The notes: generated by a model not told the origin, from the sequence alone. Positions 37,600-57,211 are shown, counted from the first letter of the stretch. The stretch is 64,000 nt of DNA from an uncultured Alistipes sp. (GCA_905213895.1 CAJMKE010000002.1:30124-94123), one strand, 5' to 3'. Numbers and translations: made by a program.

Positions 37600-37944
37600 A
37601 TGCCACGTTCAGTCAATGCTGTTGCGTCCCGCGCAAGAAGAAAAAAGGTTTTGAAACTTGCCAAAGGCAACTTTGGTTCAAGGGGAAACGTTTGGACGGT
37701 AGCGAAAAACACCGTCGAAAAGGGTTTGCAGTTTGCCTATGCACACCGCCAACTCAAAAAGCGCACATTCCGTTCGTTGTGGATTACGCGTATCAACGCC
37801 GCAGTCCGCGCCCAGGGAATGACGTATTCCGAATTTATCGGTAAAATCAACGCCAAAGGCATCGCCCTCAACCGCAAGGTTCTGGCAGATTTGGCGATGA
37901 ACGAGCCGAAAGCATTCGAGGCGATTGTAAAAGCAGTTAAATAG
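37600..37944 (+). CDS. rplT: 50S ribosomal protein L20
   Basis: [23 protein letters not shown] is the canonical L20. Confidence 0.95.
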
Positions 37945-38000
37945 CACTTTTGCATCACGCAAAAGCGGGTCGGGCGGCATGCGTGCCGCCCGATTTTTTT
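37945..38000 (+). terminator. Rho-independent terminator(s) after rplT
   Basis: Two hairpins are CTTTTGC-ATCAC-GCAAAAG and CGGGCGGCATGCGTGCCGCCCG. A T7 run follows. Confidence 0.7.
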
Positions 38001-38294
38001 AATCATATATACTTTATATTATATTGACATCATTTTGGACATAACGACGGGTTGTCGAAATATGATGTAAAATGGTATATATTAGTCCTTATTATATATG
38101 TTGCTTGCTCCTGCGAACATGCTCTGGCGACGCCGTCCGTGCGTTGCGTAGGCATATTGCGCGGATGATTCCGAATGCCGCCCAACTTTTGTCGAAATAC
38201 GAAAATATGCTGTGTTTTTATACGATAAAGTTTATTTTTTTGACAATTTCCGAGTCGTATATACAACTGGTTGATAATCAATATAAAAATTTTC

Positions 38295-38305
38295 GGGGGG
38301 GGGGG
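38295..38305. repeat. G11 homopolymer about 30 bp upstream of the candidate -33 element of the polysaccharide-locus promoter
   Basis: TTTTCGGGGGGGGGGGATTTTTG lies in AT-rich intergenic DNA. Confidence 0.9.
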
Positions 38306-38335
38306 ATTTTTGCAATAAAAAACACTACGAAATAT

Positions 38336-38366
38336 TTGGATTAAAGTATTATTTCATATACTTTTG
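38336..38366 (+). promoter_or_regulatory. Candidate Bacteroidota sigma-A promoter of the CPS locus (-33 TTTG at 38336-38339, -7 TACTTTTG at 38359-38366)
   Basis: The spacer is 19 bp. A leader of about 170 nt before upxY is usual for UpxY-regulated loci. Confidence 0.45.
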
Positions 38367-38540
38367 CGCTTGATATAGTACGGTTTCTTTTACAGAAACG
38401 TGCAAGATCGGATTTTACAGGCAATAAACTTCATACGGATATACTTATAACTGCTTGATGCATAGACTTGTATTGTATCAGGCAGGATTAGAGGAATTGC
38501 CATTCGGAGAATATAAAGCCCTGATACGGTTTCCGCAGCC

Positions 38541-39089
38541 ATGACACAAAAAGCCGAAACGACCGCACGCTGGTATGTGATGCGCGACCTTAAACGCCCG
38601 AATGCGAAGATGCCTGCATACCGACAACTTTCGGATGCCGGCATGGAGGTCTTCACGCCGATGCGTCAGGTACTTAAAGTCCGCAACGGCAGACGTATCC
38701 GCGAGAGCGTACCGTTTATCCGCGACCTGCTGTTCGTCCGCGAAATGCGCGCCGTTCTCGACCCGATAGTCGAAAAGACGCCGACGCTCCAATACCGCTA
38801 CCGCCGCGGCGGCGAATACCGTGAACCGATGGTCGTCGCCGACGCCGACATGGATATTTTCATGCGCGCCGTCGCCTGCTCGTCGAATCCGCGCTATTAT
38901 CTGCCGCAAGAACTTACTCCGTCGATGTGCGGATGTACGGTTCGGGTTGTCGGAGGCGTTCTCGACGGCTACGAAGGCAGACTGTTGAGCATCCGTGGTT
39001 CGCGCACCAAAAGACTTCTGGTGGAACTGCCGGATTTCGTAACCGTCGCCATCGAAGCCGACTTCGAATACGTGCAGATAATCAAATGA
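38541..39089 (+). CDS. upxY: UpxY-family NusG-like transcription antiterminator (CPS locus leader gene)
   Basis: The NusG N-domain is WYVMRDLKRP...VFTPMRQV and the KOW motif is VRVVGGVLDGYEGRL. It is the first gene of a polysaccharide operon. Confidence 0.7.
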   Translation: MTQKAETTARWYVMRDLKRPNAKMPAYRQLSDAGMEVFTPMRQVLKVRNGRRIRESVPFIRDLLFVREMRAVLDPIVEKTPTLQYRYRRGGEYREPMVVADADMDIFMRAVACSSNPRYYLPQELTPSMCGCTVRVVGGVLDGYEGRLLSIRGSRTKRLLVELPDFVTVAIEADFEYVQIIK

Positions 39090-39172
39090 CGGATTGCCGC
39101 CGGCACTTTGCAGCGGCATTGCGTATAGATGCATACGATAGATTACGACCCAAACAAATTTATTTACTCAAT

Positions 39173-41110
39173 ATGCAACGACTGATAACCAAATTGCATT
39201 TGGAGCGTTATTTGAGTTCCAAACTGATTCTCTGCATCGACCTTGCGATTTCCGTCATGGCATCGCTGGTCGCGCTCATAATCGTACACCTGCTCTTCGG
39301 AGGCGGCATCTCGAACCGTTTTGCACTGGTATGGCTGGTCGGCGCGACGGTATTCTCGCTGCTGCTGTATTATGTACTGAAAACATACCGCTTTATCATC
39401 CGCCATTCCACGCTGCGCGAAATCGCCAAGTTCGTGCTTGCGACTTTCGGCAAAGAGGTGCTGCTGGGATTGAGCGTGCCGGTGTTCGCCCGCGGCATCG
39501 TCGGGGGGGGGAATACGGCGGTATTGCTGCTGCTCGATTTCCTGCTTACGCTCTGTGCGCTGGTCGTGGTGCGCGTGATGATGATAGTCGGTTATGACCT
39601 GATAAAACACCGGTTGAAACGTCGCAGCAATTGCAGCCGTGTGCTGATTTACGGTACGGGCGACAAATCGGTGGCGTTGGTCATGCGTTTGCAGAACTCG
39701 CCGCACTACGAAGTGTCGGGATTCCTGACCTACGGACCGCGTCTGAAAAACCACATGCTCGCCCAACACAGCGTCTACTATTTCGAGAGTGCGGGCAACG
39801 TGAAGTATCTTCGCGGACGCTACGACATCGACGCCATATTGTTCGCCACCGAATCGGAAGCGCAGTCGGAACAGGAACGCCTGCTCAAATACGCCACCGA
39901 CAACGACATAAAGATACTCATCGCCCCTCCGATAGACGAGGTCGTGGGCGGCAGACTGATGAAGTCGTCCATCCGCGAAATCAAAATCGAGGATTTGCTG
40001 GGTCGTCCCGAGATAAAGATTTCGCTCGACGAGATAATCGCCGACTTCCGCGGCAAGACGATTATGGTAACCGGTGCCGCAGGCTCGATAGGCTCGGAGT
40101 TGTGCCGCCAGTTGGCGACGTTCGGCATCAGGAAACTCGTGCTGTTCGACAACTCCGAAACGCCGATGCACAACATCCGTCTCGAACTTGAAGAGCGTTT
40201 TCCGGAACTCGACTTCTCGCCCGTAATCGGCGACGTCCGCATTCCGGCACGTCTCGATTTCGTCTTCCGCACCTATCGCCCGCAGGTGGTCTTCCACGCC
40301 GCAGCCTACAAGCATGTGCCGCTGATGGAGGAGAACCCGTGCGAAGCGGTGCTGGCGAATGTCGCCGGTTCGCGCAACGTAGCCGACAAGTGTCTGGAAT
40401 ACGGCGTCGAGAAGATGGTGATGATTTCGACCGACAAGGCTGTGAATCCGACAAACATCATGGGTTGCACCAAGCGTCTGGCGGAGATTTACGTGCAGTC
40501 GCTGGGTCTTGCCGTCGAGCAGGGCAGGATAAAGGGACGGACGAGATTCGTAACCACGCGCTTCGGCAACGTTCTCGGCTCGAACGGCTCCGTAATCCCT
40601 CGTTTCCGCGAACAGATTGCAAAGGGAGGTCCGGTAACGGTAACGCACCCCGACATCACGCGTTTCTTCATGACCATTCCCGAAGCCTGCCGTCTGGTGA
40701 TGGAGGCTGCGACGATGTCCACCGGCACGCAGATATTCGTGTTCGACATGGGCGAATCGGTGAAGATTGCGCATCTGGCGAAACGCATGATAGAACTCGC
40801 CGGCTTCGAACCGGGCAAGGACATCAAAATCGAGTATACGGGTCTGCGACCGGGCGAGAAACTCTACGAGGAGGTGCTTTCCAATACGGAGAATACCCTG
40901 CCGACCTCGCACGACCGCATCCGCATCGCCAAGGTGCGCGAGTACGACTACGCCGACGCCTGCCGCGCCGCCGACATGCTCGAAACCCTCTCCCGCGAGG
41001 TGAACATACCCGACATGGTCCGACTCATGAAATCGACCGTCCCAGAGTTCATATCAAAGAACTCTCGGTTCGAGGTGTACGATAAAATAACGGAGTCAGT
41101 AAATAGTTAA
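39173..41110 (+). CDS. Membrane-anchored UDP-sugar 4,6-dehydratase, CapD/WbpM/PglF family
   Basis: Four N-terminal TM helices precede two Rossmann domains (VLIYGTG, MVTGAAGSIGSEL). The start is taken at MQRLITKLH, since the ORF track start at 38927 overlaps upxY. Confidence 0.8.
   Translation: MQRLITKLHLERYLSSKLILCIDLAISVMASLVALIIVHLLFGGGISNRFALVWLVGATVFSLLLYYVLKTYRFIIRHSTLREIAKFVLATFGKEVLLGLSVPVFARGIVGGGNTAVLLLLDFLLTLCALVVVRVMMIVGYDLIKHRLKRRSNCSRVLIYGTGDKSVALVMRLQNSPHYEVSGFLTYGPRLKNHMLAQHSVYYFESAGNVKYLRGRYDIDAILFATESEAQSEQERLLKYATDNDIKILIAPPIDEVVGGRLMKSSIREIKIEDLLGRPEIKISLDEIIADFRGKTIMVTGAAGSIGSELCRQLATFGIRKLVLFDNSETPMHNIRLELEERFPELDFSPVIGDVRIPARLDFVFRTYRPQVVFHAAAYKHVPLMEENPCEAVLANVAGSRNVADKCLEYGVEKMVMISTDKAVNPTNIMGCTKRLAEIYVQSLGLAVEQGRIKGRTRFVTTRFGNVLGSNGSVIPRFREQIAKGGPVTVTHPDITRFFMTIPEACRLVMEAATMSTGTQIFVFDMGESVKIAHLAKRMIELAGFEPGKDIKIEYTGLRPGEKLYEEVLSNTENTLPTSHDRIRIAKVREYDYADACRAADMLETLSREVNIPDMVRLMKSTVPEFISKNSRFEVYDKITESVNS
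39503..39511 (+). repeat. G9 homopolymer inside the capD-like CDS (encodes GGG in IVGGGNTA); currently in frame
   Basis: The context is ATCGTCGGGGGGGGGAATACG. Confidence 0.9.
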
Positions 41111-41131
41111 AAAGTGCATTTGGAGAATTTT

Positions 41132-41139
41132 GGGGGGGG
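41132..41139. repeat. G8 homopolymer in the intergenic region upstream of the GT2 gene
   Basis: The context is GAGAATTTTGGGGGGGGACTAAAAAAC. Confidence 0.9.
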
Positions 41140-41330
41140 ACTAAAAAACTTGTAAGGTGGTGCTATCCCAGTATTTCTACAGAATGACAAATTTAATATC
41201 TATCTGTAAAAACTAAATTTCGTTCTCCTTACAGCGAATTAAATATGACAAATAATGTTTAGGTAAATACGCAATATTGGGTTCGAATAAAATTATGACC
41301 TTTTATTACGATCTTAAGATTGATAACGCG

Positions 41331-42335
41331 ATGAATATAAAAGTAAGCATTATAGTTCCAGTTTATAATGTCAAACAATATCTTTCTCGATGTCTTACCT
41401 CCCTTGTAAATCAGACATTAAATGATATTGAAATAATTGTGGTAGATGATGGCTCTACTGATGGAAGTGAGCATATTATTGATGAATTTGCATTACGTTT
41501 TTTTAAAATAATGCGTGTTATTCATAAAGAGAATGGCGGATTGATGTCTGCGTGGACAACAGGAGTAAAAGCCGCCAAAGGGGAATACATAGGCTTTATT
41601 GATAGTGATGATTATGCAGCAGTAGATATGTTTGAAAATTTATATAAGTTAGCAACATCGAGCAATGTTGATATCGTTATCAGCAATTATATCGTAAATG
41701 GTATCGCATTGGGGACTCATCCAATTAAAGAAGGGCGATATGAAGGCGAACAATTAGTAAACATTTTCAAAAAGCACGTTTTCCCATCGCCGTATACATA
41801 TTCGATATCGATGTCAAGAATGCCTAAATTATTCAAGCGTCATATTATTACAGATAATCTAATATATACGGAAAGTTTAAGTAAAACATTTGAAGATCGT
41901 TATATAACTCCGGCAGCAATATTAAGTGCTCAATCAATATATTATACACCAAAGGGATATTATTATTGGATGCTTCGAAAAAATTCCAATCATGGTATGT
42001 ATAAAGAGCATTTGTTGGACGATATAAAACGGGTGTATAATGTGCAATATCAAATTATTCATGATAAACAATTATCGTTGGAGCAAATTTGGGAGGAGGC
42101 TTATTTAGATTTCATTCGTTTATATGTAGACAGAAATATTATAAAGGTGGAATCGCTATTTACAAAAATTAAATCTGCAAAAGAACTTTTAAACGATAAA
42201 CTGACAAAAGCAAGGCTTGATAAATACGGGCATTTATTGAGGAATAAGTTAGGTAAAGCAGTAATGATTTCGTATAAACTAAATTCTCCGGTCCTTCTTG
42301 CCGTATCGAGTTATTTGACCAGATCCGTTGACTGA
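41331..42335 (+). CDS. Glycosyltransferase family 2
   Basis: It has MNIKVSIIVPVYN...IEIIVVDDGSTDGS and a DSDD (DxD) motif. The start is taken at the Met before KVSIIVPVYN. Confidence 0.75.
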   Translation: MNIKVSIIVPVYNVKQYLSRCLTSLVNQTLNDIEIIVVDDGSTDGSEHIIDEFALRFFKIMRVIHKENGGLMSAWTTGVKAAKGEYIGFIDSDDYAAVDMFENLYKLATSSNVDIVISNYIVNGIALGTHPIKEGRYEGEQLVNIFKKHVFPSPYTYSISMSRMPKLFKRHIITDNLIYTESLSKTFEDRYITPAAILSAQSIYYTPKGYYYWMLRKNSNHGMYKEHLLDDIKRVYNVQYQIIHDKQLSLEQIWEEAYLDFIRLYVDRNIIKVESLFTKIKSAKELLNDKLTKARLDKYGHLLRNKLGKAVMISYKLNSPVLLAVSSYLTRSVD

Positions 42336-43861
42336 TGAGGAAGCCGTCTCTTAATGAACAAAGTGCTCTGAATGTCATTGGCAGTATCGTTGTAGTTGCT
42401 ATTAACGTTACTATCAATTTAGTGCTTTCTCCTTATATAGTAAAACATTTGGGAGTGGAAGCGAATGGGTATATTACGTTAGCCAATAACTTCGTGTCAT
42501 ATTTGACTATGGTGTCTATAGCATTAAATTCCATGGTCGGAAGGTTTATTTTAATAGATAATCGCAGAGGATATCAACAATCGGCTAATGAATATTACAG
42601 TTCTGTGTTGATTGGAGATTGGATAATGGCAATGGTATTCTTTATGCCAATGTTATTATTTGTTGTTTTTATTGACAGATTAATTAAAGTCCCAGACCAA
42701 CTTATATGGGACATAAGAATCCTGTTTGGGATAGTATTCTTCAATTATATTATTCAACTTTGTGTTCCGCAGTGGCAGACGGCGACCTACTGTACTAATA
42801 ATTTATATTTGCGGTCGTTGAAGAATGCGGTTTCCAATATTATTCGAGCAGTCTCTGTTTATTTGTTGTTTAGGCTGTTTACCCCTCATAGTTATTATGT
42901 CGCAGTGTCGGCGACATTTATGACGATTGTCAGTTTGTCGATCGATTATACTTTTTATAAAAAGTTAATGCCGGAATTGAAGTGGAGTATTTCGTGGTTC
43001 AGATGGAAAAAAGTTAAAGAATTAGTGTCGTCGGGTATATGGAATACGATTTCGCAATGCGGAAATCTACTATTGGAAGGATTCGATATTTTAATTGCTA
43101 ATATTTTCATCAATCCAGTAGCGGCAGGAGTTTTGGCTTTATCCAAGATGATTCCCAATATGATTAATCAAATAACTGGAACTGTGTCTACAACTTATGG
43201 CCCTCGACTGACATATCTATATGCCGATGGGAAAATAAATCAAATGGAGAATGAGATTAAAAATAATATTGTGTTGCTTTCAGTACTTTCGAATATACCC
43301 ATTGGAACTTTCTTCGTATTCGGGATTCCATTCTTTAAACTTTGGGTACCATCACAGGATGCATTTCAACTTACAGTCTTGTCCTCTTTGTCCTTATTAG
43401 GTTTACTCTTTGCAGGATTGGCACAATGTTATGTTAATATTTTCGGTGTTGTGAACAAGTTAAAACTTAACTCACTCATGATAGTTGGTTCAGGTTTAAT
43501 AAATTTGACATGTGTATTTTTATTATTGAAATATAGTTCGTTAGGGATATATTCCGTTGTAATAACGAGTTCGGTAATAACAATTATACGAATTATGACA
43601 TTCGTTATTCCATATTCCGCCCGTCTTATCGATACATCCAGTTGGAAATTGACAATATATCTACTGCGAGGTGCGATCAATGTTGTAATCCCGATTGGCA
43701 TAGGGCTAATATTCAGGTGTTTAATTGAAATAGACGGATGGGGAGGTCTTGTAACTGCAATCGGCGGTACAGCAATTATATCCGCACTTATTTATATGAT
43801 AGTCGTTTTAAATAGAAATCAGAGAGAGACGGTTCTTAGAATATTCCATGTAATTCAATAA
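42335..43861 (+). CDS. wzx: Wzx-type oligosaccharide flippase (MOP superfamily polysaccharide biosynthesis protein)
   Basis: The 508-aa protein has about 12 TM helices and is in a polysaccharide locus. Confidence 0.7.
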   Translation: MRKPSLNEQSALNVIGSIVVVAINVTINLVLSPYIVKHLGVEANGYITLANNFVSYLTMVSIALNSMVGRFILIDNRRGYQQSANEYYSSVLIGDWIMAMVFFMPMLLFVVFIDRLIKVPDQLIWDIRILFGIVFFNYIIQLCVPQWQTATYCTNNLYLRSLKNAVSNIIRAVSVYLLFRLFTPHSYYVAVSATFMTIVSLSIDYTFYKKLMPELKWSISWFRWKKVKELVSSGIWNTISQCGNLLLEGFDILIANIFINPVAAGVLALSKMIPNMINQITGTVSTTYGPRLTYLYADGKINQMENEIKNNIVLLSVLSNIPIGTFFVFGIPFFKLWVPSQDAFQLTVLSSLSLLGLLFAGLAQCYVNIFGVVNKLKLNSLMIVGSGLINLTCVFLLLKYSSLGIYSVVITSSVITIIRIMTFVIPYSARLIDTSSWKLTIYLLRGAINVVIPIGIGLIFRCLIEIDGWGGLVTAIGGTAIISALIYMIVVLNRNQRETVLRIFHVIQ

Positions 43862-43957
43862 TTATTACATATAAAATTAGGACCGACATACATTTTATTG
43901 ATAAGTTGCTAAACAACACTATATTTAGCGGTGTATTGATTTCATAAAAAATAATAT

Positions 43958-44689
43958 ATGAACATTTCAGTAATATTTGCGGGTGGTGTTGGCACCCGTA
44001 TGAATACAAAATCTCGTCCCAAGCAGTTTTTGGATCTGAATGGCAAACCTATTATTGTATATACAATTGAACTGTTTGAGAATCATCCCGATGTAGACGG
44101 CATAATCGTAGTATGTTTAGAGAGTTGGATCCCTTTTCTTCGTAAAATGCTTAAAAAATTCGAGATTACCAAAGTCGTTAGAATTGTTTCCGGAGGAGTA
44201 TCAGGTCAAGACTCTATATATAACGGTCTGTGTGCAGCAGAAGATTATGTCAAGGAACAAGGTGAAAGTAATGCTATAGTAATGATTCATGACGGAGTGC
44301 GTCCTTTGATAACAGAAGACACGATTACAGACAATATTGAAAAAGTTAAGGAGTGCGGAAGTTGTATTACGGTCGTTCCTGCTACCGAGACTTTTGTAGT
44401 AACTCACGAAGACGGTTCATTGGAACTGCCATCACGTTCGCTCTGTAAACTTGCTCGTGCACCGCAAAGTTTTTATCTGAATGATATCATTAGTGCGCAC
44501 CGAAGAAGCAGAAAAGAGGGTTTGACAGGATTTATCGATTCGTGTTCATTAATGAGTTACTATGGCTATAAATTGGGATTGATCGAAGGTCCTATGGAAA
44601 ACATTAAAATTACAACACCTACTGATTATTTCGTGTTTCGCGCAATGGTTGAAGTGCATGAAAATCAGCAAATATTCGGAATATACTGA
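43958..44689 (+). CDS. IspD/TarI-like nucleotidyltransferase (CDP-alcohol forming, e.g. ribitol-5-phosphate cytidylyltransferase)
   Basis: It has VIFAGGVGTRMNTKSRPKQFL...HDGVRPL. It overlaps the next gene at ATGA. Confidence 0.7.
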   Translation: MNISVIFAGGVGTRMNTKSRPKQFLDLNGKPIIVYTIELFENHPDVDGIIVVCLESWIPFLRKMLKKFEITKVVRIVSGGVSGQDSIYNGLCAAEDYVKEQGESNAIVMIHDGVRPLITEDTITDNIEKVKECGSCITVVPATETFVVTHEDGSLELPSRSLCKLARAPQSFYLNDIISAHRRSRKEGLTGFIDSCSLMSYYGYKLGLIEGPMENIKITTPTDYFVFRAMVEVHENQQIFGIY

Positions 44690-45686
44690 TGACACAAAGA
44701 CTTTATCAATTCGATATTCTCAAAGGAATAGGGATACTTTGCGTGTTGCTGGGGCATAGTGCTTTGAGTGGATTCCCCAAAGAGATCATATATGGTTTTC
44801 ATATGCCATTATTCTTTTTCTGTTCAGGAGTCTTCTTTAAAGATAGAAATTTGCGTGAAACTATAACTAAAAGCATAAAGCAACTCTTATTTCCATATTT
44901 GTTTTTCCTTTTGGTGTTATTGTCATGCGATTTTGTACTTTATCTGAAAGCGACACATAGTCTTTACGAAACGGTTATATCCATATATAATAGTATAAAT
45001 TGTCCTTTAAACGAAGATTGCCGCTTGTATTTAACGATTTGGTTTTTACCTTGTCTTTTTATTGTAAGAATATTATACGCGTTATTGTATAGGTGTTGCA
45101 AATGTAATGAGGGAAAACTATTGGCAATATCTATTATTGCCGGGGGGGGTATTTTATCGGTAATCATATAACCTTACCTTTTTTTCTCGATTCTGCAATT
45201 AGTTGTTTAATATACTATCATTTCGGTTATTGTTTTTATAAATATAATCTGTATAAAATCCGATTAGCATTACGATGGACAATACTTTTAGGGTTTTTAT
45301 ATATTCTTACTGTAGCATTGTTACATCCGCATGTCGATCTGAAGTATAACACATTCCCGTTCTATCTAATTATACTATCATCGATGGCAATCATCGTATT
45401 GTATCAGTTCAGTTTGTTTTTATCGAAAGAGTCGAATGTAATTTCTGCTTTTTTGATTAAATGCGGTAATTGCAGCCTTACGATGTTGGGTTTGCATAGA
45501 CCGGTTTGGTTATTCGTATATCCGATATGCTTGAAATTTGAATTTAACGAGTATATGCTAATAATAGTTGAAATGATTACTGCGGTGTCGTTTATACGAT
45601 TAGCGGATAAAATACTTAACAAATACGCTCCGACCTTGATAGGTAAACAAAATAACAATCTTGTATATTGTAAACAGCGCATATGA
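44689..45686 (+). pseudogene. Acyltransferase-3 family (OafA-like O-acyltransferase) gene interrupted by a frameshift at a G8 tract; candidate phase-OFF gene
   Basis: ORF 44689..45171 has the AT3 N-terminal motif FDILKGIGILCVLLGH. ORF 45318..45686 in frame +1 carries the remaining TM helices. Hand translation shows that reading a ninth G at 45142-45149 gives a continuous 332-aa ORF with no stop across 45150-45320. Confidence 0.65.
45142..45149 (+). repeat. G8 homopolymer at the frameshift point of the acyltransferase-3 gene
   Basis: The context is ATTGCCGGGGGGGGTATTTTATCG. Confidence 0.9.
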
Positions 45687-46702
45687 ATGCTCAACTTGAA
45701 GATGATATCTTGGAATACTCTCAAACTTTTCCTTTTGCGGATAAATTGAGAGATGCATCCTTTATGATTACCGGTGCAACGGGATTGATCGGTTCCATAC
45801 TTGTCAGATGCTTATTGGCATTAGACCGGAATATCAGTATCACTATTCCGGTTCGCAATTTTGAGAAGGCTGTTACCCTATATGGGAAAGATGCAGCGAA
45901 GATTAAAATCATACCGTGCAATCTATGTGATTATATCGAATCTTTGGAAGACCATTTCGATTTTATCATTCATTGTGCGAGTCCTACTTCGGGAAAGTAT
46001 GTGAATGAACATCCTGTCGAGACTTTCGAGTTGGCGATAGAGAGTACACGCGCATTATTGAAATATGCCAAGTCTAACGATGTTAAGAGTTTCGTTTATG
46101 TCAGTTCGCTAGAATACTATGGTCAAAATAATGACAATAGGTTTATTACGGAAGAAATGCAGGGTTATATAGATCCAGTAAGTCCTCGATCCTCATATCC
46201 TATGGGCAAGCGAGCGGCAGAATATTTATGTTTTGCATACGCTTCCGAATACGCAGTACCCGTAAAGATTGCCAGGCTTACGCAGACTTTCGGAGCAGGT
46301 GTGTCTAGTGATGACAATAGAGTTTTCGCACAGTTTGCGAGATGTGTTCTAAACGGGAAGGATATAGTGATGCACTCTACTGGAGAGTCTGCTAAACCTT
46401 ATTGTTATACTACGGATTGTGTATCTGCAATTCTATATATTTTATTAAAAGGTGAGAATGGAGAATCATATAATGTCGCGAATCAGAGTACATATATAAG
46501 CATTGCTGAGATGGCAGAATTCCTTAAGACAAGATTCAATTCCACTATAGATGTCCGTATAGAGCAGCATCCGGAAATGGGCTATGCTCCTATCACGAAA
46601 CTTCGTTTATCTACTGAAAAATTGAATGGCCTGGGCTGGACTCCTAAAATAGGCTTGGAAGAAATGTACAAAAGGCTTTTAGCATCGTTTAAATATGCAT
46701 AG
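45683..46702 (+). CDS. NAD-dependent epimerase/dehydratase family (extended SDR)
   Basis: It has ITGATGLIGS, YxxxK (YPMGK) and an upstream S. Confidence 0.7.
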   Translation: MNAQLEDDILEYSQTFPFADKLRDASFMITGATGLIGSILVRCLLALDRNISITIPVRNFEKAVTLYGKDAAKIKIIPCNLCDYIESLEDHFDFIIHCASPTSGKYVNEHPVETFELAIESTRALLKYAKSNDVKSFVYVSSLEYYGQNNDNRFITEEMQGYIDPVSPRSSYPMGKRAAEYLCFAYASEYAVPVKIARLTQTFGAGVSSDDNRVFAQFARCVLNGKDIVMHSTGESAKPYCYTTDCVSAILYILLKGENGESYNVANQSTYISIAEMAEFLKTRFNSTIDVRIEQHPEMGYAPITKLRLSTEKLNGLGWTPKIGLEEMYKRLLASFKYA

Positions 46703-46796
46703 GAATTATCTTAATTTTAAGATTGTAAGTTTCTCTCATTCTTTTCACTGTAATCAAATATTATTTAACGAACGAAGTTTATAACATTGTCTATTA

Positions 46797-47627: not shown

Positions 47628-47635
47628 AATACTAT

Positions 47636-48739: not shown

Positions 48740-48744
48740 TAAAA

Positions 48745-49833
48745 ATGAAAATAAATAAAATACTTGTTATCGATGGGGCCATGGTATCAAGATCTCCGCA
48801 TGTAAAAATGTATCTTAATGCTTTGGATAATTTGGGGATCGAATATGATGTCATCGGTTGGAATAGAAAGGGTGATGATTTGTCGGATGTTCCTAACAAT
48901 TACTATATTTATGATAATCCAACCGATGATCATTATCCGGTGTGGCGAAAAATTTGGGAGATATATGGATTTTATAAATATTTCCAAAAAAATTTAGGCG
49001 GTGATGAGTACAAAGCAGTAATAATCTTCGAGATTGCCAATACTATTCTTTTTACTCATTTTTTAGAACGTAAATATAAAAATAGATATATATTTGATAT
49101 CAGGGATTATTCTCCGGTTTGTAAATTCTGGCTCGCGCGAGTTATACTATCAAAGTTAATAAACAATTCGTATAGAACTGTGATATCTTCGGCTGGTTTT
49201 AAAACTTGGCTTCCCAAATGTTATGATTATCTGATTTCTCACAATATTGACATAAAATATTTTAATAATCTGAAGAACAGTCCATTCGTGGATTTCCATG
49301 CTCCGTTGCGGATATTGACGATTGGAAATTTGAGAGATCCCGAAATTAATTGTGAATTAACGAGAAGTTTCGGAAACGATATGAATTTTGACATGAGGTT
49401 TGTCGGATATGGTTATGCGGGTCAGATAATTCAAAAATTTTGTTCAAACAACAATATTGCTAACGTATCATTTCATGGACGTTATAAAAAATCAGAAGAG
49501 ATATCGTTTTATGAAGATGCGGATATAATAAACTGTTGTATGGGCAACAATATGTTAAGTAATTATTTGATGTCTAATCGAATTTATCTTGCAGCACTTC
49601 TGCGAAAACCGATTATTTGTATAAAAGGATCTTATCAATCCAATATTGTGCAGCAATACAACCTCGGTTGCATCGTAAATAATATAAATAACATGAAAAA
49701 TGAATTACAGGAATATTTAGATAGGTTTGATAGAATAAAATATTTGAATGGAGTTTCGTTGTTTTTGCAAATGGTTGAAATTGACCAAAAGAAATATTTG
49801 AATCAAATTGAAGAATTAACCGAGTTAGAATGA
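48745..49833 (+). CDS. Hypothetical protein, possible GT-B-like glycosyltransferase
   Basis: The 362-aa protein is very AT-rich. No firm motif was recognised. Confidence 0.3.
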   Translation: MKINKILVIDGAMVSRSPHVKMYLNALDNLGIEYDVIGWNRKGDDLSDVPNNYYIYDNPTDDHYPVWRKIWEIYGFYKYFQKNLGGDEYKAVIIFEIANTILFTHFLERKYKNRYIFDIRDYSPVCKFWLARVILSKLINNSYRTVISSAGFKTWLPKCYDYLISHNIDIKYFNNLKNSPFVDFHAPLRILTIGNLRDPEINCELTRSFGNDMNFDMRFVGYGYAGQIIQKFCSNNNIANVSFHGRYKKSEEISFYEDADIINCCMGNNMLSNYLMSNRIYLAALLRKPIICIKGSYQSNIVQQYNLGCIVNNINNMKNELQEYLDRFDRIKYLNGVSLFLQMVEIDQKKYLNQIEELTELE

Positions 49834-50450
49834 TGAGTATTAAATACATTTGGTCAAAACTGATAAAGAAACTCAGATTGAGTTCGATTATCAATAGTAA
49901 TATTCATAAAACTTCGACAATCGAGTCAGGCAGTAATGTCGTAAATGTTATAATGGACAAGTATTCCTATTGTGGATACGATTGCGAAATAGTTAATGCA
50001 AAAATAGGGGCATATTGTTCTATTGCCAATAATGTTACTATAGGCGGTGCTATGCATCCGATGGAATGGGCGAGCACTTCGCCAGTATTCTATTATGGTC
50101 GTGATAGTGTCAAAAAAAAGTTCGCATCATTCCATCGTGCGGAACACAAGAAAACAATTATAGGGAATGATGTATGGATTGGGGGGGGGAGTTTTATAAA
50201 GCAGGGTGTCCGTATTAGCGACGGAGCGGTCGTGGGGATGGGATCAATCGTTACTAAAGATGTCCCACCTTATGCTATTGTCGCTGGAAATCCAGCCAAA
50301 TTAATTCGTTATCGTTTTGACGACGAAACTATAAATAAACTGTTGAAGTCAGAATGGTGGACATTGGAAGACGAAGATTTGACGGTTTTCGCTCGTAATA
50401 TTCGAGAACCAATGCTGTTCGCTGATTCGATAATAACAAGTAGACTGTAA
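49830..50450 (+). CDS. Hexapeptide-repeat (left-handed beta-helix) O-acetyltransferase, Vat/LacA/CysE-like
   Basis: The hexapeptide repeats include IGAYCSIANNVTIGG and IGNDVWIGGGSFI. Confidence 0.7.
   Translation: MMSIKYIWSKLIKKLRLSSIINSNIHKTSTIESGSNVVNVIMDKYSYCGYDCEIVNAKIGAYCSIANNVTIGGAMHPMEWASTSPVFYYGRDSVKKKFASFHRAEHKKTIIGNDVWIGGGSFIKQGVRISDGAVVGMGSIVTKDVPPYAIVAGNPAKLIRYRFDDETINKLLKSEWWTLEDEDLTVFARNIREPMLFADSIITSRL
50181..50189 (+). repeat. G9 homopolymer inside the acetyltransferase CDS (encodes GGG in WIGGGSF); in frame
   Basis: The context is TGGATTGGGGGGGGGAGTTTT. Confidence 0.9.
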
Positions 50451-50469
50451 ATATTTAATAACACGATTT

Positions 50470-51615
50470 ATGTCAGAAAGATCTTATCAAGTGTGTACCC
50501 ATTGTGTAATGGATACAAGCGACAAAAATATCCTATTCGATGAGAATGGGGTATGTATGCGATGCAAGGAATATGAAGAGAGTATCTTACCTTGGTGGAA
50601 TTACGGAAAAGGGCACGAAGCAGAATTACAGACCATAATCAATCGCATCAAAAATGATGGTAAAGGCAAGGAGTACGATTGTATACTCGGCATGAGCGGA
50701 GGGTTGGACAGTTCTTATATGCTCCATTTGGCGGTGAAGGAATGGGGACTTCGTCCGTTTGTGTTTCACATCGATGCTGGATGGAATCTTCCCGTTGCCG
50801 AAGAAAATATTCGCAAGATGTGTGATAAACTCGGTGTCCACCTGCATATACAGAAACTGAACTGGGAAGAATTGAGACAAATGCAGATCGCTTTCTTCAA
50901 GACCGGTCATGCAGGATTGGATGTCCCCCAAGATCATTCGTTCATAGCCCAAATAGATAAATATTCCGAAGAACTTGGCGTCAAATACATTCTTAATGGT
51001 TATAACATCTGTACTGAAATCATTGCGGATCCGGAATCATGGTTTGAAGGTGCTGGTCCAACTGCAGATAAAACATATGTAAAGGATGTATTGAAAAAAC
51101 ATGGTGGTGTTCATACGAAAGATTATACTTACACAACAGGTTTCAAGCACAAGTTTGTACTACCGTATATTAAAGGTGTTAAGACATTGCAATTATTGAA
51201 TTACGTAGAATTCACAAAACAATCTATGATCGAGACTCTGCAAAAAGAGTATGATTATCAACCGTACGGTCAAAAACATTTTGAGGATTTGCTTACGAAG
51301 TTTCTTGAAGCGTGGTGGTTGCCGAAACGTTTCGGCTTTGATATAAGAAGAGCGCAGTTGTCGAGTCTTGTGATAACCGGTCAGATGTCGAGGGATGACG
51401 CATTAAAAATTCTTGAAACACCTCCGGTGCCTGAAAAGGAATGTATGGAAATGTTTAAGGAGGTCTGCCGTAGATTGGAGATCAGTGAAGAAGAATTGAT
51501 GTCTTATTTTAATTTGCCTAAAAAGTATAGGCATTATAAAAACAATTCATGGGCATTTGCAGTCGGTATTAAATTGTACCAATTTTTGGGTCTCGACAGA
51601 AGAATCAGAAAGTAA
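50470..51615 (+). CDS. N-acetyl sugar amidotransferase (PP-loop ATP pyrophosphatase, WbpG/WbuX-like)
   Basis: An N-terminal Cys cluster (CTHC...CMRC) precedes the SGGLDSS PP-loop. Confidence 0.65.
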   Translation: MSERSYQVCTHCVMDTSDKNILFDENGVCMRCKEYEESILPWWNYGKGHEAELQTIINRIKNDGKGKEYDCILGMSGGLDSSYMLHLAVKEWGLRPFVFHIDAGWNLPVAEENIRKMCDKLGVHLHIQKLNWEELRQMQIAFFKTGHAGLDVPQDHSFIAQIDKYSEELGVKYILNGYNICTEIIADPESWFEGAGPTADKTYVKDVLKKHGGVHTKDYTYTTGFKHKFVLPYIKGVKTLQLLNYVEFTKQSMIETLQKEYDYQPYGQKHFEDLLTKFLEAWWLPKRFGFDIRRAQLSSLVITGQMSRDDALKILETPPVPEKECMEMFKEVCRRLEISEEELMSYFNLPKKYRHYKNNSWAFAVGIKLYQFLGLDRRIRK

Positions 51616-51659
51616 TGCAATTGTTATTTAATGCTTTTATTTGGGACTGAGGTATCAAT

Positions 51660-52868
51660 ATGAATATTCTTTTTCTGACGCTTTCACATATTACTGATAT
51701 TCATGAGCGGAGCATATATAATGATCTGGTGCGAGAATTAATGCGAAGAGGTCATAGTGTGTATATTGCATCTCCGACAGAAAGGCGATATGCCATGCCG
51801 ACGCAATCGTATGAAAGTAATGGAGCACATATTCTAAATATCAAAACTCTCAATATTCAGAAAACAAATATAATAGAGAAAGGTATCGGTACATTGATCA
51901 TAGAATATCAATTCGATTATGCCATAAGTAAGTATTGGTCTGATATAAAGTTTGATTTAGTTCTTTACTCAACACCTCCAATTACTTTTAACAGAATCAT
52001 AGCCAAAGTGAAACGTCGTTGCGGGGCACGGAGTTATTTGATGCTCAAAGATATCTTCCCTCAGAATGCCGTCGACCTCGGAATAATGAAAGAGGGTGGG
52101 CTACTACACAGGATATTCCGTCGTAAAGAGAAGCAACTGTATGAGTTATCGGATCGAATCGGGTGCATGTCTCCCGCCAATTGCCGATATGTAATAAAAC
52201 ATAATACTCATGTTGATCCTGTAAAAGTAGAGATTTGTCCTAATGCAATTGAAGTGATACCACAAACCGAGATTTCAATTGTCGAAAAATCGATACTGTT
52301 ATCTAAATATGGAATTCCGTTTGACAAAACATTATTCATTTACGGTGGTAATCTCGGGAAACCTCAAGGATTGGAGTTTTTAATAAACGTATTAGCAATA
52401 AATGAAAAACGCACGAACAGTTTTATCGTGATAGTTGGTTCTGGAACAGAATATCCAATGTTATCCGCATGGTTTGACAAGTACAAACCGTATAATTCTA
52501 AACTTGTATCCACTCTTGAAAAAAAAGAGTATGATAGACTTGTCGGGATTTGTGATGTAGGATTAGTTTTTCTTCATCCTAAGTTTACTATCCCGAATTT
52601 CCCGTCTCGAATTCTCAGTTATCTTGAAAATAAAATGCCGGTTCTGTTGGCCACAGATATAAACACCGATGTCGGTAAAATAGCAGAAGACAATGGCTTT
52701 GGCTTTTGGTGCGAAAATGGTGATATAGAAATGTTTGAAAAACTAATGGATAAATTTTCCGATTTATCTACTATAAAAAAAATGGGGCAGAGAGGTTATG
52801 AATTCCTTGTTGATAATTATCAAGTTTCCAATGCTTGTGATATTATTTTAGATCAAAAGAAAAAATAA
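51660..52868 (+). CDS. Glycosyltransferase family 4 (WbuB-like, candidate L-FucNAc transferase)
   Basis: It has a GT-B fold and the C-terminal E..G.P motif region. It co-occurs with fnlABC-like genes. Confidence 0.65.
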   Translation: MNILFLTLSHITDIHERSIYNDLVRELMRRGHSVYIASPTERRYAMPTQSYESNGAHILNIKTLNIQKTNIIEKGIGTLIIEYQFDYAISKYWSDIKFDLVLYSTPPITFNRIIAKVKRRCGARSYLMLKDIFPQNAVDLGIMKEGGLLHRIFRRKEKQLYELSDRIGCMSPANCRYVIKHNTHVDPVKVEICPNAIEVIPQTEISIVEKSILLSKYGIPFDKTLFIYGGNLGKPQGLEFLINVLAINEKRTNSFIVIVGSGTEYPMLSAWFDKYKPYNSKLVSTLEKKEYDRLVGICDVGLVFLHPKFTIPNFPSRILSYLENKMPVLLATDINTDVGKIAEDNGFGFWCENGDIEMFEKLMDKFSDLSTIKKMGQRGYEFLVDNYQVSNACDIILDQKKK

Positions 52869-52878
52869 GCATTAAAAT

Positions 52879-53487
52879 ATGTATCGTTGTTTTTTCAAAA
52901 GAGTAATAGATTTTTCGGTTGCTTTTTGTGGACTGCTTTTCATAGGTTGGCTTCTTGCTGTCATTGCACTTTGGCTTTATTTTGCGAATAAAGGTGCTGG
53001 CGTTTTCTTTACTCAGGAACGTCCCGGTAAGGGTGCTAAAATTTTCAAGGTCATAAAATTCAAAACCATGACTGACGAACGCGACGCAGACGGCAATCTT
53101 TTGCCGGACGAAAAACGTCTGACAGAGGTCGGTCGGTTCGTGCGTTCGACTTCTATCGATGAATTGCCACAACTTTGGAATGTTTTTAAAGGAGATATGT
53201 CGTTAATCGGACCGAGACCATTGCTCGTACAATATCTTCCTTTATACTCTCCGGAACAGGCGCGTAGGCATGAGGTACGTCCTGGTATCACAGGGTGGGC
53301 GCAATGTCATGGTCGCAATGCCATATCTTGGCAGAAGAAATTTGAATTGGACGTGTGGTATGTCGATCACATCTCATTTATTACCGATTGTAAAGTGATT
53401 TGGAACACTATCCAGAAAGTATTGAAACGCGCAGATATATCATCGGAAACTTCAGCGACTATGGAGCCATTTAATGGAAATAATTAA
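52879..53487 (+). CDS. Initiating undecaprenyl-phosphate sugar-phosphate transferase (small bacterial sugar transferase, PglC/WcfS/WbaP-C-like)
   Basis: It has an N-terminal TM helix, then KVIKFKTM, PQLWNV..G.MS.VGPRP and GITGWAQ. Confidence 0.8.
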   Translation: MYRCFFKRVIDFSVAFCGLLFIGWLLAVIALWLYFANKGAGVFFTQERPGKGAKIFKVIKFKTMTDERDADGNLLPDEKRLTEVGRFVRSTSIDELPQLWNVFKGDMSLIGPRPLLVQYLPLYSPEQARRHEVRPGITGWAQCHGRNAISWQKKFELDVWYVDHISFITDCKVIWNTIQKVLKRADISSETSATMEPFNGNN

Positions 53488-53490
53488 TAC

Positions 53491-54132
53491 ATGAAAGATA
53501 TCGCAATATACGGAGCCGGCGGATTCGGTCGCGAAATCGCCTGTCTAATTAGGCAAATCAACAATGTTGAACCGCAGTGGAAGTTTATCGGTTTTTTTGA
53601 TGACGGAATTCCGAAATGTGAGCGAAATGAATATGGGACTGTACTCGGTGGGATAAATGATCTTAATTTATGGAAAAAGTCGATCTCGATAGTCATGGCT
53701 ATAGGTTCGCCTCTAACGGTTAAGGTATTGGCAGATAAAATATCAAATCCCAATGTATCTTTTCCTAATATAATAGCGCCGACTACGCTTTTTCTCGACA
53801 GGAACAGCGTGAAAATGGGTCATGGAAATGTGATTTGCAACCGATGTACAATCAGTTGCAACGTTACGATCGGTGATTTCAATATTTTTAATGGGTATAT
53901 CCCAGTCGGTCATGATGCTATTATCGGCAACTACAATGTTTTCATGCCGTCTGTGAATGTGTCGGGCGGAGTAGAGATCGGCAATTGTAATTTCTTCGGA
54001 GTGCAGTCGGTCGTGTTGCAATATCAAAATGTTGGCAGCAATGTACGCATCGGAGCCAATAGTGTTGTAATGCGCACTGCAAAAGACGGAAACTTGTATA
54101 TGGGCAATCCTGCTACAAAAGTTAAACTTTAA
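53491..54132 (+). CDS. NeuD/PglD-family sugar N/O-acyltransferase (hexapeptide)
   Basis: It has IYGAGGFGREI and C-terminal hexapeptide repeats. Confidence 0.7.
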   Translation: MKDIAIYGAGGFGREIACLIRQINNVEPQWKFIGFFDDGIPKCERNEYGTVLGGINDLNLWKKSISIVMAIGSPLTVKVLADKISNPNVSFPNIIAPTTLFLDRNSVKMGHGNVICNRCTISCNVTIGDFNIFNGYIPVGHDAIIGNYNVFMPSVNVSGGVEIGNCNFFGVQSVVLQYQNVGSNVRIGANSVVMRTAKDGNLYMGNPATKVKL

Positions 54133-54145
54133 ATAATATTAGAAA

Positions 54146-54379
54146 ATGGAAATTCAAGAATTCATTCAAAATTTCTCAGATCAGTTTGATGATACTGATT
54201 CAGTAGTGTTTACTCCGGAAACCAACTTCCGGGAACTCGACGAGTGGTCATCTCTACTTGCATTATCGATCCTTGCAATGGTTGATGAAGAATATGACGT
54301 GCAGTTAAAAGCGGATCAGATGCGTAAAGCAAACACCATTCAAGAACTTTTCGAAATCGTAAAATCGCTTAAAGACTAA
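54146..54379 (+). CDS. Acyl carrier protein-like
   Basis: The 77-aa acidic protein has LDEWSSL at the expected phosphopantetheine-Ser position. Confidence 0.5.
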   Translation: MEIQEFIQNFSDQFDDTDSVVFTPETNFRELDEWSSLLALSILAMVDEEYDVQLKADQMRKANTIQELFEIVKSLKD

Positions 54380-55437
54380 TGGCTGTTTTTTCTACGGAAC
54401 ACGTTGCCATTAGAGGTATATCCGCTTGCGTACCTGCTGATATACAGTATAATAGTAAGGTGTATGAAAAATATGGAGGTGGGGGGTATGAACAGTTTGT
54501 CGCAACGACTGGAGTTAAACAGAAGAGAATAGCATCGAAGTATATTACGTCATCAGACTTGTGTTGCTCTGCCGCAGAGAAATTGATGACCGATCTATGT
54601 TGGAAGAATGATGAAATAGATGTACTGATTTTTGTTTCACAAACTCCCGATTACATCCTTCCTGCTACTTCTTGCATCCTTCAGGAAAGACTCGGACTTT
54701 CTAATAATTGCTATACTCTTGATATATCGCTTGGCTGTTCCGGATGGGTTTATGCATTGAGTGTGATTGCATCTCTGATGCAAAATGGATTTTTTAGAAA
54801 AGGGTTGCTTTTATCTGGAGATACTGTATTAAAACTTTGTTCCGATAATGACAAAAGTACGTACCCTTTATTCGGAGATGCTGGTACTTGTACCGCTTTG
54901 GAATTCGACGAGAATGCAAAGGCAATGTCATTTGTTATGCATACCGACGGTTCGGGCGCAAATGCAATTATTGTAAAAACCGGTGCAGCAAGAAATCGTG
55001 TAACACCAGAATCGTTTGTCGAGGAAGATTACGGTGAAGGAATACGACGTAATTCTTATCAGATTGAAATGGATGGTATATCGGTGTTTACATTCGGCAT
55101 ATCCAAAGCATCAAAAGTCGTTAATGAATTATTAGATGTTACAGACGAAAATCGCGAAAATATCGACATTTACTCTTTTCATCAGGCAAATCTCTTCATG
55201 AACGAGAAGATTCGTAAAAAATTGAAACTATTACCCGAACAAGTACTGTATTCAATGGATGAATTCGGTAACACTTCTTGCGCAAGCATTCCGTTGACGC
55301 TTGTGGTTAGACGTGCAGACGATCTTCGTAATAAATCTTTGAAGCATATCGGGTGCGGTTTTGGTGTGGGACTTTCTTGGGGGGCAGTGCGGTTCGACAC
55401 AGATAATATTATTGTACCAAAATTAATCGAGATTTAA
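54379..55437 (+). CDS. 3-oxoacyl-ACP synthase III (FabH-like KAS III) paralog 1
   Basis: It has active-site Cys (LGCSGW), His (SFHQANLFM) and Asn (GNTSCAS). Confidence 0.75.
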   Translation: MAVFSTEHVAIRGISACVPADIQYNSKVYEKYGGGGYEQFVATTGVKQKRIASKYITSSDLCCSAAEKLMTDLCWKNDEIDVLIFVSQTPDYILPATSCILQERLGLSNNCYTLDISLGCSGWVYALSVIASLMQNGFFRKGLLLSGDTVLKLCSDNDKSTYPLFGDAGTCTALEFDENAKAMSFVMHTDGSGANAIIVKTGAARNRVTPESFVEEDYGEGIRRNSYQIEMDGISVFTFGISKASKVVNELLDVTDENRENIDIYSFHQANLFMNEKIRKKLKLLPEQVLYSMDEFGNTSCASIPLTLVVRRADDLRNKSLKHIGCGFGVGLSWGAVRFDTDNIIVPKLIEI

Positions 55438-56196
55438 ATGGAATACAATCCCTTTTCATTAAAAGATAAGACTATTCTTGTTACCGGCGCAAGCAGCGGG
55501 ATCGGTCGTGCAATTGCTATCGAGTGTTCCAAAATGGGCGCTGTTGTTGTTGCTTCGGCGAGAAATAGAGAACGTCTTGAACAAACGCTTTTCCAAATGA
55601 ATGGAGAAGGGCATTTATCGATAACCGCTGATCTTGGAGATGCGGATGATGTTGAGCGTATGGTAAAGCAGTTGCCGCAACTCGATGGTGTTGTACATTG
55701 TGCGGGTATTGGAGATCGAACGCTTGGCAAAATGGTTCGAGAAAAGGATATAGAAAGGGTGATGAAAACTAATTTTGACGCTCCGGTTCTTCTGCAACGC
55801 GCATTATTAAAAAAGAAACTCATAAAACAGTCTTCTTCAATAGTTTTCATCGCTTCTCGTGCGCCTTTTGCTCCGACAATTGGGAATGGTCTGTACGCAG
55901 CCTCTAAAGGTGCTATAATCGCTTACTCCAAAGTTCTTGGGTTGGAACTTGCTTCTCAAAAAATTCGAGTCAACTGCATATGTCCGGCAATGGTCTGGAC
56001 AGAACTTGTAGAACGTGATGCATTGCTGACTGGCGCCGATTATCATGAAGCGGAGAAAGCATATCCTCTCGGACGATATGGTCAACCCGAAGATGTAGCT
56101 TACTTATGCATATATTTACTATCTGACGCAAGTGGCTGGATGACTGGTAGTAGTGTGGATATAACTGGGGGGGGGGAATTCTCTCTAAAATCGTAA
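55438..56196 (+). CDS. SDR family 3-oxoacyl-ACP reductase (FabG-like)
   Basis: It has TGASSGIGRAIA and Y..xK (YAASK). Confidence 0.75.
   Translation: MEYNPFSLKDKTILVTGASSGIGRAIAIECSKMGAVVVASARNRERLEQTLFQMNGEGHLSITADLGDADDVERMVKQLPQLDGVVHCAGIGDRTLGKMVREKDIERVMKTNFDAPVLLQRALLKKKLIKQSSSIVFIASRAPFAPTIGNGLYAASKGAIIAYSKVLGLELASQKIRVNCICPAMVWTELVERDALLTGADYHEAEKAYPLGRYGQPEDVAYLCIYLLSDASGWMTGSSVDITGGGEFSLKS
56167..56176 (+). repeat. G10 homopolymer 20 nt before the stop of the FabG-like gene (encodes GGG in ITGGGEF); in frame
   Basis: The context is ATAACTGGGGGGGGGGAATTC. Confidence 0.9.
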
Positions 56197-56198
56197 GA

Positions 56199-57197: not shown

Positions 57198-57211
57198 ATC
57201 AAGAAAATCAG

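Follow-up and report, generated by a model that had tools for sequence, protein, structure and literature searches.

Six runs of 8 to 11 G residues lie in and around an UpxY-led capsular polysaccharide (CPS) operon in a 64,000-nucleotide (nt) stretch of DNA from an uncultured Alistipes sp. (GCA_905213895.1 CAJMKE010000002.1:30124-94123; hereafter the window, with coordinates counted from its first letter). We consider it likely that these runs are hypermutable contingency loci of the operon. They are located upstream of the predicted operon promoter, within a capD-like dehydratase gene, between capD and a GT2 glycosyltransferase gene, at the frameshift of an acyltransferase-3 gene, within a hexapeptide-repeat acetyltransferase gene and near the end of a FabG-like reductase gene (Table 1). 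The runs are far more frequent than expected, all six differ in length among closely related public genomes, and intact and broken forms of the affected genes coexist in public data. The locus-bearing contigs come from human-gut metagenomes, and the exact-sequence protein clusters that match the window are annotated Alistipes sp.

The tracts had been described in an earlier reading of the DNA, here called the sequence-only reading. A regular-expression scan of the whole window for G/C runs found all six at the positions and lengths it gave (G11, G9, G8, G8, G9 and G10, in order along the locus). Each reads G on the + strand, the strand that encodes the genes of the locus. The claim that such runs are not expected from base composition was borne out for region 38001-57200, with six runs of at least 8 nt observed and 0.10 expected if bases are independent and identically distributed, or 0.11 under a first-order Markov model. 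The histogram of G runs is bimodal, with 103, 19, 0, 2 and 0 runs of lengths 3 to 7 and 2, 2, 1 and 1 runs of lengths 8 to 11; together with an expectation of approximately 0.1, this means that the six runs are not the tail of a compositional distribution. The AT-rich setting proposed for the tracts applies to four of them, which sit in the low-GC cassette (31-43% GC), but not to the first two, which sit in the upxY/capD head at 47-59% GC. Codon usage also sets the coding tracts apart. Of the 517 Gly codons in the locus, 68 (13%) are GGG, the least used form, but four of the seven Gly-Gly-Gly runs are spelled GGG-GGG-GG(G/T). As the sequence-only reading stated, the only other G/C run of at least 8 nt in the 64 kb is a C8 at 34136-34143. 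This C8 lies between convergent genes for an inositol-monophosphatase-family protein and an anaerobic sulfatase-maturase, and it was unchanged in three contigs. One other strain carries a C9 between a sulfatase gene and rpmI (L120:1705-1713) that the window lacks.

Contigs with the same locus were collected by exact-protein look-ups in public assemblies, which gave 32 segments, and 10 further strains with the same chromosomal site were added; labels of the L001-L122 type denote the public contig segments or loci compared. The tracts proved to be variable rather than fixed in length. When the window was aligned pairwise to 21 segments of 99.8-100% identity (approximately 286 kb), there were 43 mismatches and four gaps, and all four gaps fell in G tracts: the promoter tract was reduced from 11 to 10 in L002 and L003, the capD tract from 9 to 8 in L005, and the FabG tract from 10 to 9 in L015. 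G10 was also found at the promoter tract of L006, a partial match with 98.6% identity. In the same clone, none of 12 control A/T runs of 7-9 nt changed length. A sister lineage, approximately 97-98% identical to the window, gave similar results. L105 and L106 are 99.94% identical and differ by only two gaps, one in the promoter tract (8 versus 9) and one in the hexapeptide tract (8 versus 9). The hexapeptide tract, again 8 versus 9, is the sole gap between L108 and L110; for L022 and L023, the differences are in the intergenic tract (6 versus 7) and the acyltransferase tract (7 versus 8). With the sister lineage and other strains included, lengths were 8-11 for the promoter tract, 8, 9 or 10 for capD, 6, 7 or 8 for the intergenic tract, 7, 8 or 9 for acyltransferase-3, 8 or 9 for the hexapeptide gene and 9 or 10 for FabG. 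The gaps within the window's clone and the differences found in the sister lineage show that all six tracts are length polymorphic, and their states assort independently of each other. The length polymorphism that marks contingency loci is therefore present at the level of assemblies.

The consequences of a length change were assessed by simulation and compared with protein forms in public data. The tracts in capD, the hexapeptide gene and the FabG-like gene were correctly described as codon-aligned Gly3 in an open frame, that is ON, and the acyltransferase-3 gene as OFF at G8. A change of one unit gives a clean ON/OFF outcome for capD, acyltransferase-3 and the hexapeptide acetyltransferase. 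For capD, the predicted 134-aa and 141-aa (amino acid) fragments both exist in public data, representing the -1 and +1 states, and the gene call in L005 is split at its G8 tract. In the sister lineage (L105/L106, 97% identical), the same Gly3 is spelled GGA GGA GGG, so two synonymous changes make or unmake the tract. The intact 332-aa form of acyltransferase-3 was present in 23 contigs, the 160-aa form in 41, and a 157-aa form (G7) in two. One intact allele differs by a single residue from the restored window protein, and G7, G8 and G9 tracts are all present in the sister lineage. The hexapeptide tract is G8, with the gene split into parts of 121 and 91 aa, in L105 and L108, and G9 in their near-identical partners L106 and L110. 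The FabG tract was only partly as first described. Its codon-aligned Gly3 is in frame, but it does not act as an ON/OFF switch in simulation: G10 gives 252 aa, G9 gives 249 aa with another tail, and G8 or G11 gives a FabG-KASIII fusion of 585 or 586 aa. Both the 252-aa and 249-aa forms are found in public data. The intergenic G8 is found where the conserved head gives way to the variable, low-GC cassette, and its length is 8, 7 or 6 among loci; at the equivalent junction in another cassette, the same site carries C9 or C10.

The G11 tract is part of a module that is conserved upstream of upxY in several genera. In order, the module comprises a TGAnnnTCA palindrome, TTTTC, the G tract, an A-rich stretch, a -33 box, a -7 TTTG, a leader hairpin and the motif TAACTGCTTGA...GCAGGAWTAGA. 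Bacteroides promoters have the consensus -33 TTTG and -7 TAnnTTTG with a spacer of 19-21 nt, and the predicted promoter of the window fits this pattern. The tract was correctly placed upstream of the promoter; it sits approximately 30 nt upstream of the predicted -33 box and outside the promoter spacer. When the window was aligned with the upstream regions of seven other loci (Alistipes, Rikenellaceae and Tidjanibacter), the TTTG at -7 was the same in all eight. Among upxY promoters of these three groups, 11 have a TGAnnnTCA box whose centre lies 12-19 nt upstream of the first base of the tract. The best reading of this arrangement is that G11 would vary the spacing of the core promoter from a putative operator. 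Measured from the centre of the palindrome, the distance to the -7 box falls into two clusters, 82-83 and 73-75 nt, which differ by one helical turn. Distances of 65, 78 and 89 nt also occur, so the idea that the tract sets helical phase is suggestive only. A 7-nt indel, TATAAAA at 38283-38289, separates the window from L105 and L113-L122, with the longer tracts (10-11) in one lineage and the shorter ones (8-10) in the other. Tract length offsets this indel, so the palindrome-promoter distance is kept near 83 or 73-75 nt.

Other explanations for sequence in this region were examined. The sequence-only reading had found no inverted repeats of the kind that flank invertible promoters, and we agree: the best flanking pair in 37900-38600 has 12-nt AT-rich arms, longer pairs are weak (71-87% complementarity), and no opposite promoter orientation was found, with all public contigs that span the region colinear with the window. 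A small open reading frame (ORF) across G11 (38072-38344, 90 aa) was rejected; its frame is not conserved, and the sister lineage has several indels and a 63-aa ORF that ends before the tract. Between the rplT terminator and the palindrome there is a relatively GC-rich block of approximately 110 nt (38125-38240) that is conserved between lineages but is not a conserved ORF. The region 38105-38215 folds no better than shuffled sequence (z = 0.24), so a structured RNA there was also rejected.

Downstream of the promoter, the predicted leader (38372-38500) folds with z = -3.5 against shuffles. The hairpin at its 5' end has counterparts of differing sequence at the same place in related loci. The leader motif was identified by a pattern scan and predicted fold, and the pattern AACTGCNTG...GCAGGANT was found at most 250 nt upstream of upxY in 48 of the 80 upxY loci surveyed (see below); elsewhere it occurred twice, both times on the sense strand, and the antisense strand had no copy. 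In its wider form, TAACTGCYTGA - variable hairpin - GCAGGAYTAGAAG, the motif spans Bacteroidaceae, Rikenellaceae, Muribaculaceae, Odoribacter and others. It may be a recruitment or target element of UpxY antiterminators. An alignment made to look for covariation had its outer stem fixed by the selection pattern and its inner hairpin out of register. An Rfam scan of 37000-41500 with E values up to 1 returned three chance-level matches only; the leader motif matched no family, and no known RNA family (for example Bacteroidales-1) was found in the leader or downstream of rplT.

Taken as contingency loci, the tracts would work as follows. Replication slippage would add or remove single Gs, reversibly and at some switching rate, and every tract would act on its own target. 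A frameshift at the capD G9 would toggle the first biosynthetic enzyme and probably the whole polymer. The acyltransferase-3 G8/G9 and the hexapeptide G9 would toggle two O-acyl decorations, and the FabG G10, through a tail swap or KASIII fusion, may tune an N-acyl decoration. The G11 tract, as a variable-length spacer between the palindrome and the -33/-7 elements, would probably modulate transcription of the whole operon. Together, the tracts could give many capsule variants in a clonal population from a single locus, possibly with effects on fitness. The contingency-locus proposal of the sequence-only reading thus holds for the tracts, their variation and the ORF outcomes; reversibility, switching rates and capsule phenotypes are what we infer from them. 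The +1 and -1 states and the ON and OFF alleles in public data are compatible with reversibility, but are not proof of it.

Several points weigh against this interpretation. Some are technical. Illumina chemistry copes less well with poly-G than with any other homopolymer. Every length call is the consensus of a short-read metagenome assembly, and several of the contigs have only 3-9x coverage. Three contigs open with 26-48 artefactual C's where the G11 tract lies (L005:1-49, L007:1-26, L008:1-26), and L010 opens just past the tract. The poly-C starts look like a two-colour poly-G read artefact assembled from the opposite strand and combined with an assembly break. Length calls at G11 are the least reliable as a consequence of these breaks, and some length differences, above all 10 versus 11, could be errors. 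The extreme form of this concern is that the tracts are real but static, with all length differences due to poly-G sequencing or assembly errors and the truncated proteins in databases being artefacts; the disturbed assembly at G11 and the low coverage of several variant contigs are what would be expected. We think this very unlikely. Variant lengths are also found in contigs of 15-28x coverage (L105 21x, L106 15x, L117 28x and L120 17x), and the shorter G8 and G9 tracts vary as much as G11. Furthermore, random error would not repeatedly produce an intact 332-aa acyltransferase, present in 23 contigs from several studies, and a broken form, present in 41. The short-read caveat is serious but not fatal.

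The remaining points are biological. Mismatch repair is to be expected in Alistipes and would make slippage less frequent than in Campylobacter. The promoter and the transcription start are predictions from the consensus. The absence of the capD tract from the sister lineage means that the capD switch is not conserved. Within the window lineage, the acyltransferase-3 tract never departs from G8 (OFF; 13 of 13 loci) or the hexapeptide tract from G9 (14 of 14), so switching of these two genes is documented only in the sister lineage. At the FabG gene, the location of the tract nine codons from the stop makes it a tail switch or fusion rather than a clean ON/OFF switch. The uniformly OFF acyltransferase-3 of the window's clone would also fit one-way pseudogenization, with the tracts as mutational weak points of a decaying, horizontally acquired and dispensable cassette. 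The foreign composition of the cassette (31-43% versus 50-65% GC) and the presence of other cassettes in other strains agree with such an origin. However, the broken acyltransferase keeps an open downstream frame and is one residue from intact alleles, no second lesion was found in any affected gene, capD occurs in the +1 as well as the -1 state, and tracts are present in further, unrelated cassettes and species. Decay is highly improbable on this evidence, the least probable of the accounts we weighed.

To place the window among related loci, a UpxY profile was run against GTDB species representatives. This gave 80 upxY loci, each fetched up to 21 kb. Three compartments were scored: the 600 nt that precede upxY, the upstream flank (548 kb in total), and upxY with the CPS genes after it (634 kb in total). 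G/C runs of at least 8 nt are not uniformly common in this DNA. Per 100 kb, the flank had 0.73 of them and the CPS genes had 2.7, whereas the 600 nt before upxY had 49.8, an approximately 68-fold enrichment over flanking DNA. The tracts upstream of upxY number 23, and 20 are G on the sense strand. A G8-G12 tract at this position recurs in Rikenellaceae and other Bacteroidales; among the 17 Rikenellaceae-group loci whose upstream region is complete, 10 had it, compared with 3 of 24 Bacteroidaceae loci. Two positional classes were apparent. Class A tracts belong to the palindrome/promoter module. Class B tracts (G7-G10) stand directly before the leader motif or within its loop: the loop position was seen in L035, L038, L042 and L056, and a position 2-8 nt upstream of the motif in L044, L048, L059, L079, L082, L096 and L099. 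The class B placement suggests a link between the tract and a UpxY-dependent leader function.

This conserved placement, beside a palindrome or at or in the leader motif across genera, argues for a sequence-specific role. It could mean that the tract upstream of upxY is a fixed cis-element, either a spacer or structure or a UpxY pause or loading signal, in which length noise is tolerated, and that the intragenic runs are neutral by-products of Gly3; the capD Gly3 indeed persists in the protein of lineages that lack the DNA tract. A fixed element should have a preferred length, yet lengths of 8-11 occur within one species. All-GGG spelling in four of seven Gly3 runs, against 13% GGG usage, is not neutral, and frame-breaking lengths exist in nature for capD, acyltransferase-3 and the hexapeptide gene. 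We therefore regard a fixed element as distinctly unlikely. Our contingency-locus reading can be extended more tentatively, with somewhat more doubt than confidence, to an inversion-independent phase variation of UpxY capsules in Rikenellaceae and some high-GC gut Bacteroidales. The G8-G12 tract would control how a palindromic operator is phased on the helix relative to the promoter, or adjoin or enter the leader motif, and intragenic tracts in decoration genes would supplement it.

Intragenic tracts elsewhere in the survey were found in two acyltransferase-3 genes, a hexapeptide acetyltransferase gene, a GT2 gene, two FrhB-like genes, upxY and four Wzc C-termini. The window locus is unusually dense: its 18 kb of coding DNA contain five tracts. 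In the four Wzc-type tyrosine kinases, the G9 is just past the C-terminal Tyr-rich cluster (L027 ~5132, L037 ~5638, L060 ~5337 and L079 ~9145). TAAATG follows it directly in L027, L037 and L060 and could be a stop-start junction. Tract length there alters only the last few residues, and an effect on the next gene's start is possible as well. In two Alistipes loci (L094 and L102), the upxY coding sequence contains a G9 at +407, and both also have a G9 at about -395; the internal tract would switch the antiterminator on and off. Bacteroidales-type upxY loci also appeared in GTDB genomes labelled Oscillospiraceae, Eggerthellaceae, Acutalibacteraceae, Faecalibacillus, Bulleidia and Gastranaerophilales (L027, L037, L046, L060, L079, L082, L099 and L101), most likely because of binning contamination of metagenome-assembled genomes.

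The locus itself is a CPS operon of the Bacteroidales type, as judged by Pfam, NCBIfam and gene order, and is located after rpmI-rplT and the rplT terminator. Gene identities were taken from Pfam and NCBIfam scans plus gene calls on public contigs, and they uphold the assignments of the sequence-only reading. The best NCBIfam similarities of capD are to PseB and FnlA, both under the cutoffs. No upxZ was found after upxY; capD begins 84 nt past the upxY stop, and no gene was called between them in any contig. After capD come genes for GT2, a flippase, an IspD-like cytidylyltransferase, the split acyltransferase-3, an epimerase, LicD, Wzy and an unknown protein, followed by the hexapeptide acetyltransferase, a WbuX-like amidotransferase, GT4, an initiating sugar transferase, a PglD-like acyltransferase, ACP and KASIII. 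The FabG-like reductase, a further KASIII, a DegT aminotransferase and an FnlA-like dehydratase are next, followed by an epimerase with a Polysacc_synt_C domain, a UDP-GlcNAc 2-epimerase and a UDP-sugar dehydrogenase. GC content is 31-43% at 41-57 kb and 50-65% in the flanks. In other strains, at the same rpmI-rplT-upxY-capD site, different gene sets replace the low-GC cassette (41100-57200; L114, L116-L119 and L121). The replacement cassettes have tracts of their own, namely C9/C10 after capD and a G9 in another acyltransferase-3 gene (L117 and L118).

Table 1. Coordinates of the G tracts, promoter and leader elements, and genes of the Alistipes CPS locus
Feature	Position	Strand	Details
G11 tract upstream of the CPS promoter	38295-38305	+	Length 10 or 11 in contigs 98.6-100% identical; 8-11 in further strains
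capD tract, G9	39503-39511	+	Gly111-113, ON; simulated G9 645 aa, G8 134 aa, G10 141 aa
Intergenic tract, G8	41132-41139	+	22 nt past the capD stop, ~155 nt before the GT2 start
Acyltransferase-3 tract, G8	45142-45149	+	At the frameshift; simulated G8 160 aa, G9 332 aa, G6 331 aa
Hexapeptide tract, G9	50181-50189	+	Gly118-120, ON; simulated G9 206 aa, G8 122 aa, G10 129 aa
FabG tract, G10	56167-56176	+	Gly244-246, end of SDR domain; 9 codons before the stop, 22 nt before the next gene
Palindromic box TTGATAATCAA, candidate regulator-binding site	38271-38281		13 nt upstream of G11
Predicted Bacteroidetes-type core promoter	38335-38366	+	-33 TTTG 38335-38338; 20-nt spacer; -7 TACTTTTG 38359-38366
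Predicted leader 5' hairpin	38378-38403	+	Leader 38372-38500 fold z = -3.5 versus shuffles
Leader motif AACTGCTTGA-hairpin-GGCAGGATTAGAGG, candidate UpxY target element	38449-38493	+	Pattern scan and predicted fold
upxY, NusG-like transcription antiterminator, first gene	38541-39089	+	Pfam NusG; NCBIfam NF033644, 128 bits versus cutoff 100; homologues named UpxY family
capD/WbpM-like membrane-anchored UDP-sugar 4,6-dehydratase, 645 aa	39173-41110	+	Pfam Polysacc_synt_2
Rest of CPS cassette	41277-63357	+	Pfam and NCBIfam scans
Acyltransferase-3 (O-acyltransferase), frameshifted, OFF	44689-45686	+	Pfam Acyl_transf_3 matches the 160-aa N-terminal part
Hexapeptide-repeat acetyltransferase, ON	49830-50450	+	Pfam Hexapep
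FabG-like 3-oxoacyl-ACP reductase	55438-56196	+	Pfam/NCBIfam SDR/FabG matches, ending at residue 245

The closest parallel is with Campylobacter jejuni, in which the capsule, lipooligosaccharide and flagellar glycosylation genes also have G8-11 runs in a low-GC surface-glycan cluster, mostly in decoration genes (PMC8355987, PMC3417653). There, too, frameshifts switch genes ON and OFF and independent tracts give combinatorial variants, with phage escape as the likely benefit. The present locus differs in its Bacteroidota host, with a genome of ~55% GC and presumably intact mismatch repair, in its UpxY-controlled operon, and in having one tract within a promoter module common to several genera. 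Repeat-switched O-acetyltransferases of surface glycans are known in H. influenzae (oafA) and N. meningitidis (lot3); here there would be two acyltransferases with presumed capsule targets in a gut commensal. Promoter homopolymers are also known to alter the spacing of elements and so grade transcription, as for the Bordetella pertussis fim poly-C, between activator site and -10 box, and for Neisseria opc, porA and nadA. In contrast to those, the Alistipes tract is approximately 30 nt upstream of the -33 box, between the palindrome and a predicted sigma-ABfr-type core promoter. The FabG tract resembles C-terminal switching in Helicobacter canadensis, where a 3'-end homopolymer swaps the tail or fuses ORFs (PMC2823697), although the gene family and organism are different.

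Within its own order, the locus shares with the CPS loci of Bacteroides fragilis and B. thetaiotaomicron a Bacteroidetes promoter, a leader, upxY as the first gene, a conserved dehydratase and a variable cassette, as well as a variable gut capsule (PMC12632263). Those species use the Mpi invertase and UpxY/UpxZ, with inversion at the promoters of many loci, whereas here there are no promoter-flanking repeats, one orientation and no upxZ, and repeat-length change occurs at several points of one locus. Two reviews from 2025, on phase variation (PMC11868660) and on Bacteroidales (PMC12632263), describe only invertase-based switching for this order. A culture-collection study, which cites Alistipes putredinis, notes that the production of many phase-variable polysaccharides is not common to all gut Bacteroidales (PMC10942478). 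No report of homopolymer or simple-sequence-repeat phase variation in Bacteroidales, including their CPS loci, or in Alistipes was found in the literature covered, which excludes most subscription journals. Homopolymeric contingency loci are a known mechanism; the lineage and operon type are unexpected, and the conserved G tract upstream of upxY is the newest element.

Capsule phase variation in gut Bacteroidales is the textbook case of promoter inversion. These data indicate that an abundant gut Alistipes would instead generate diversity at one capsule locus through slippage of up to six poly-G tracts, in the manner of Campylobacter. Such variation would bear on phage-host dynamics and immune recognition, capsule variants being the main route to phage resistance in this order. 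In metagenomes, frameshifted "pseudogenes" and contig breaks at such tracts may be biology and not error, and tools of the PhaseFinder type, which detect inversions only, would miss tract variation. If the interpretation is correct, then a species with few CPS loci could achieve with one locus as much surface diversity as Bacteroides does with its many invertible loci.

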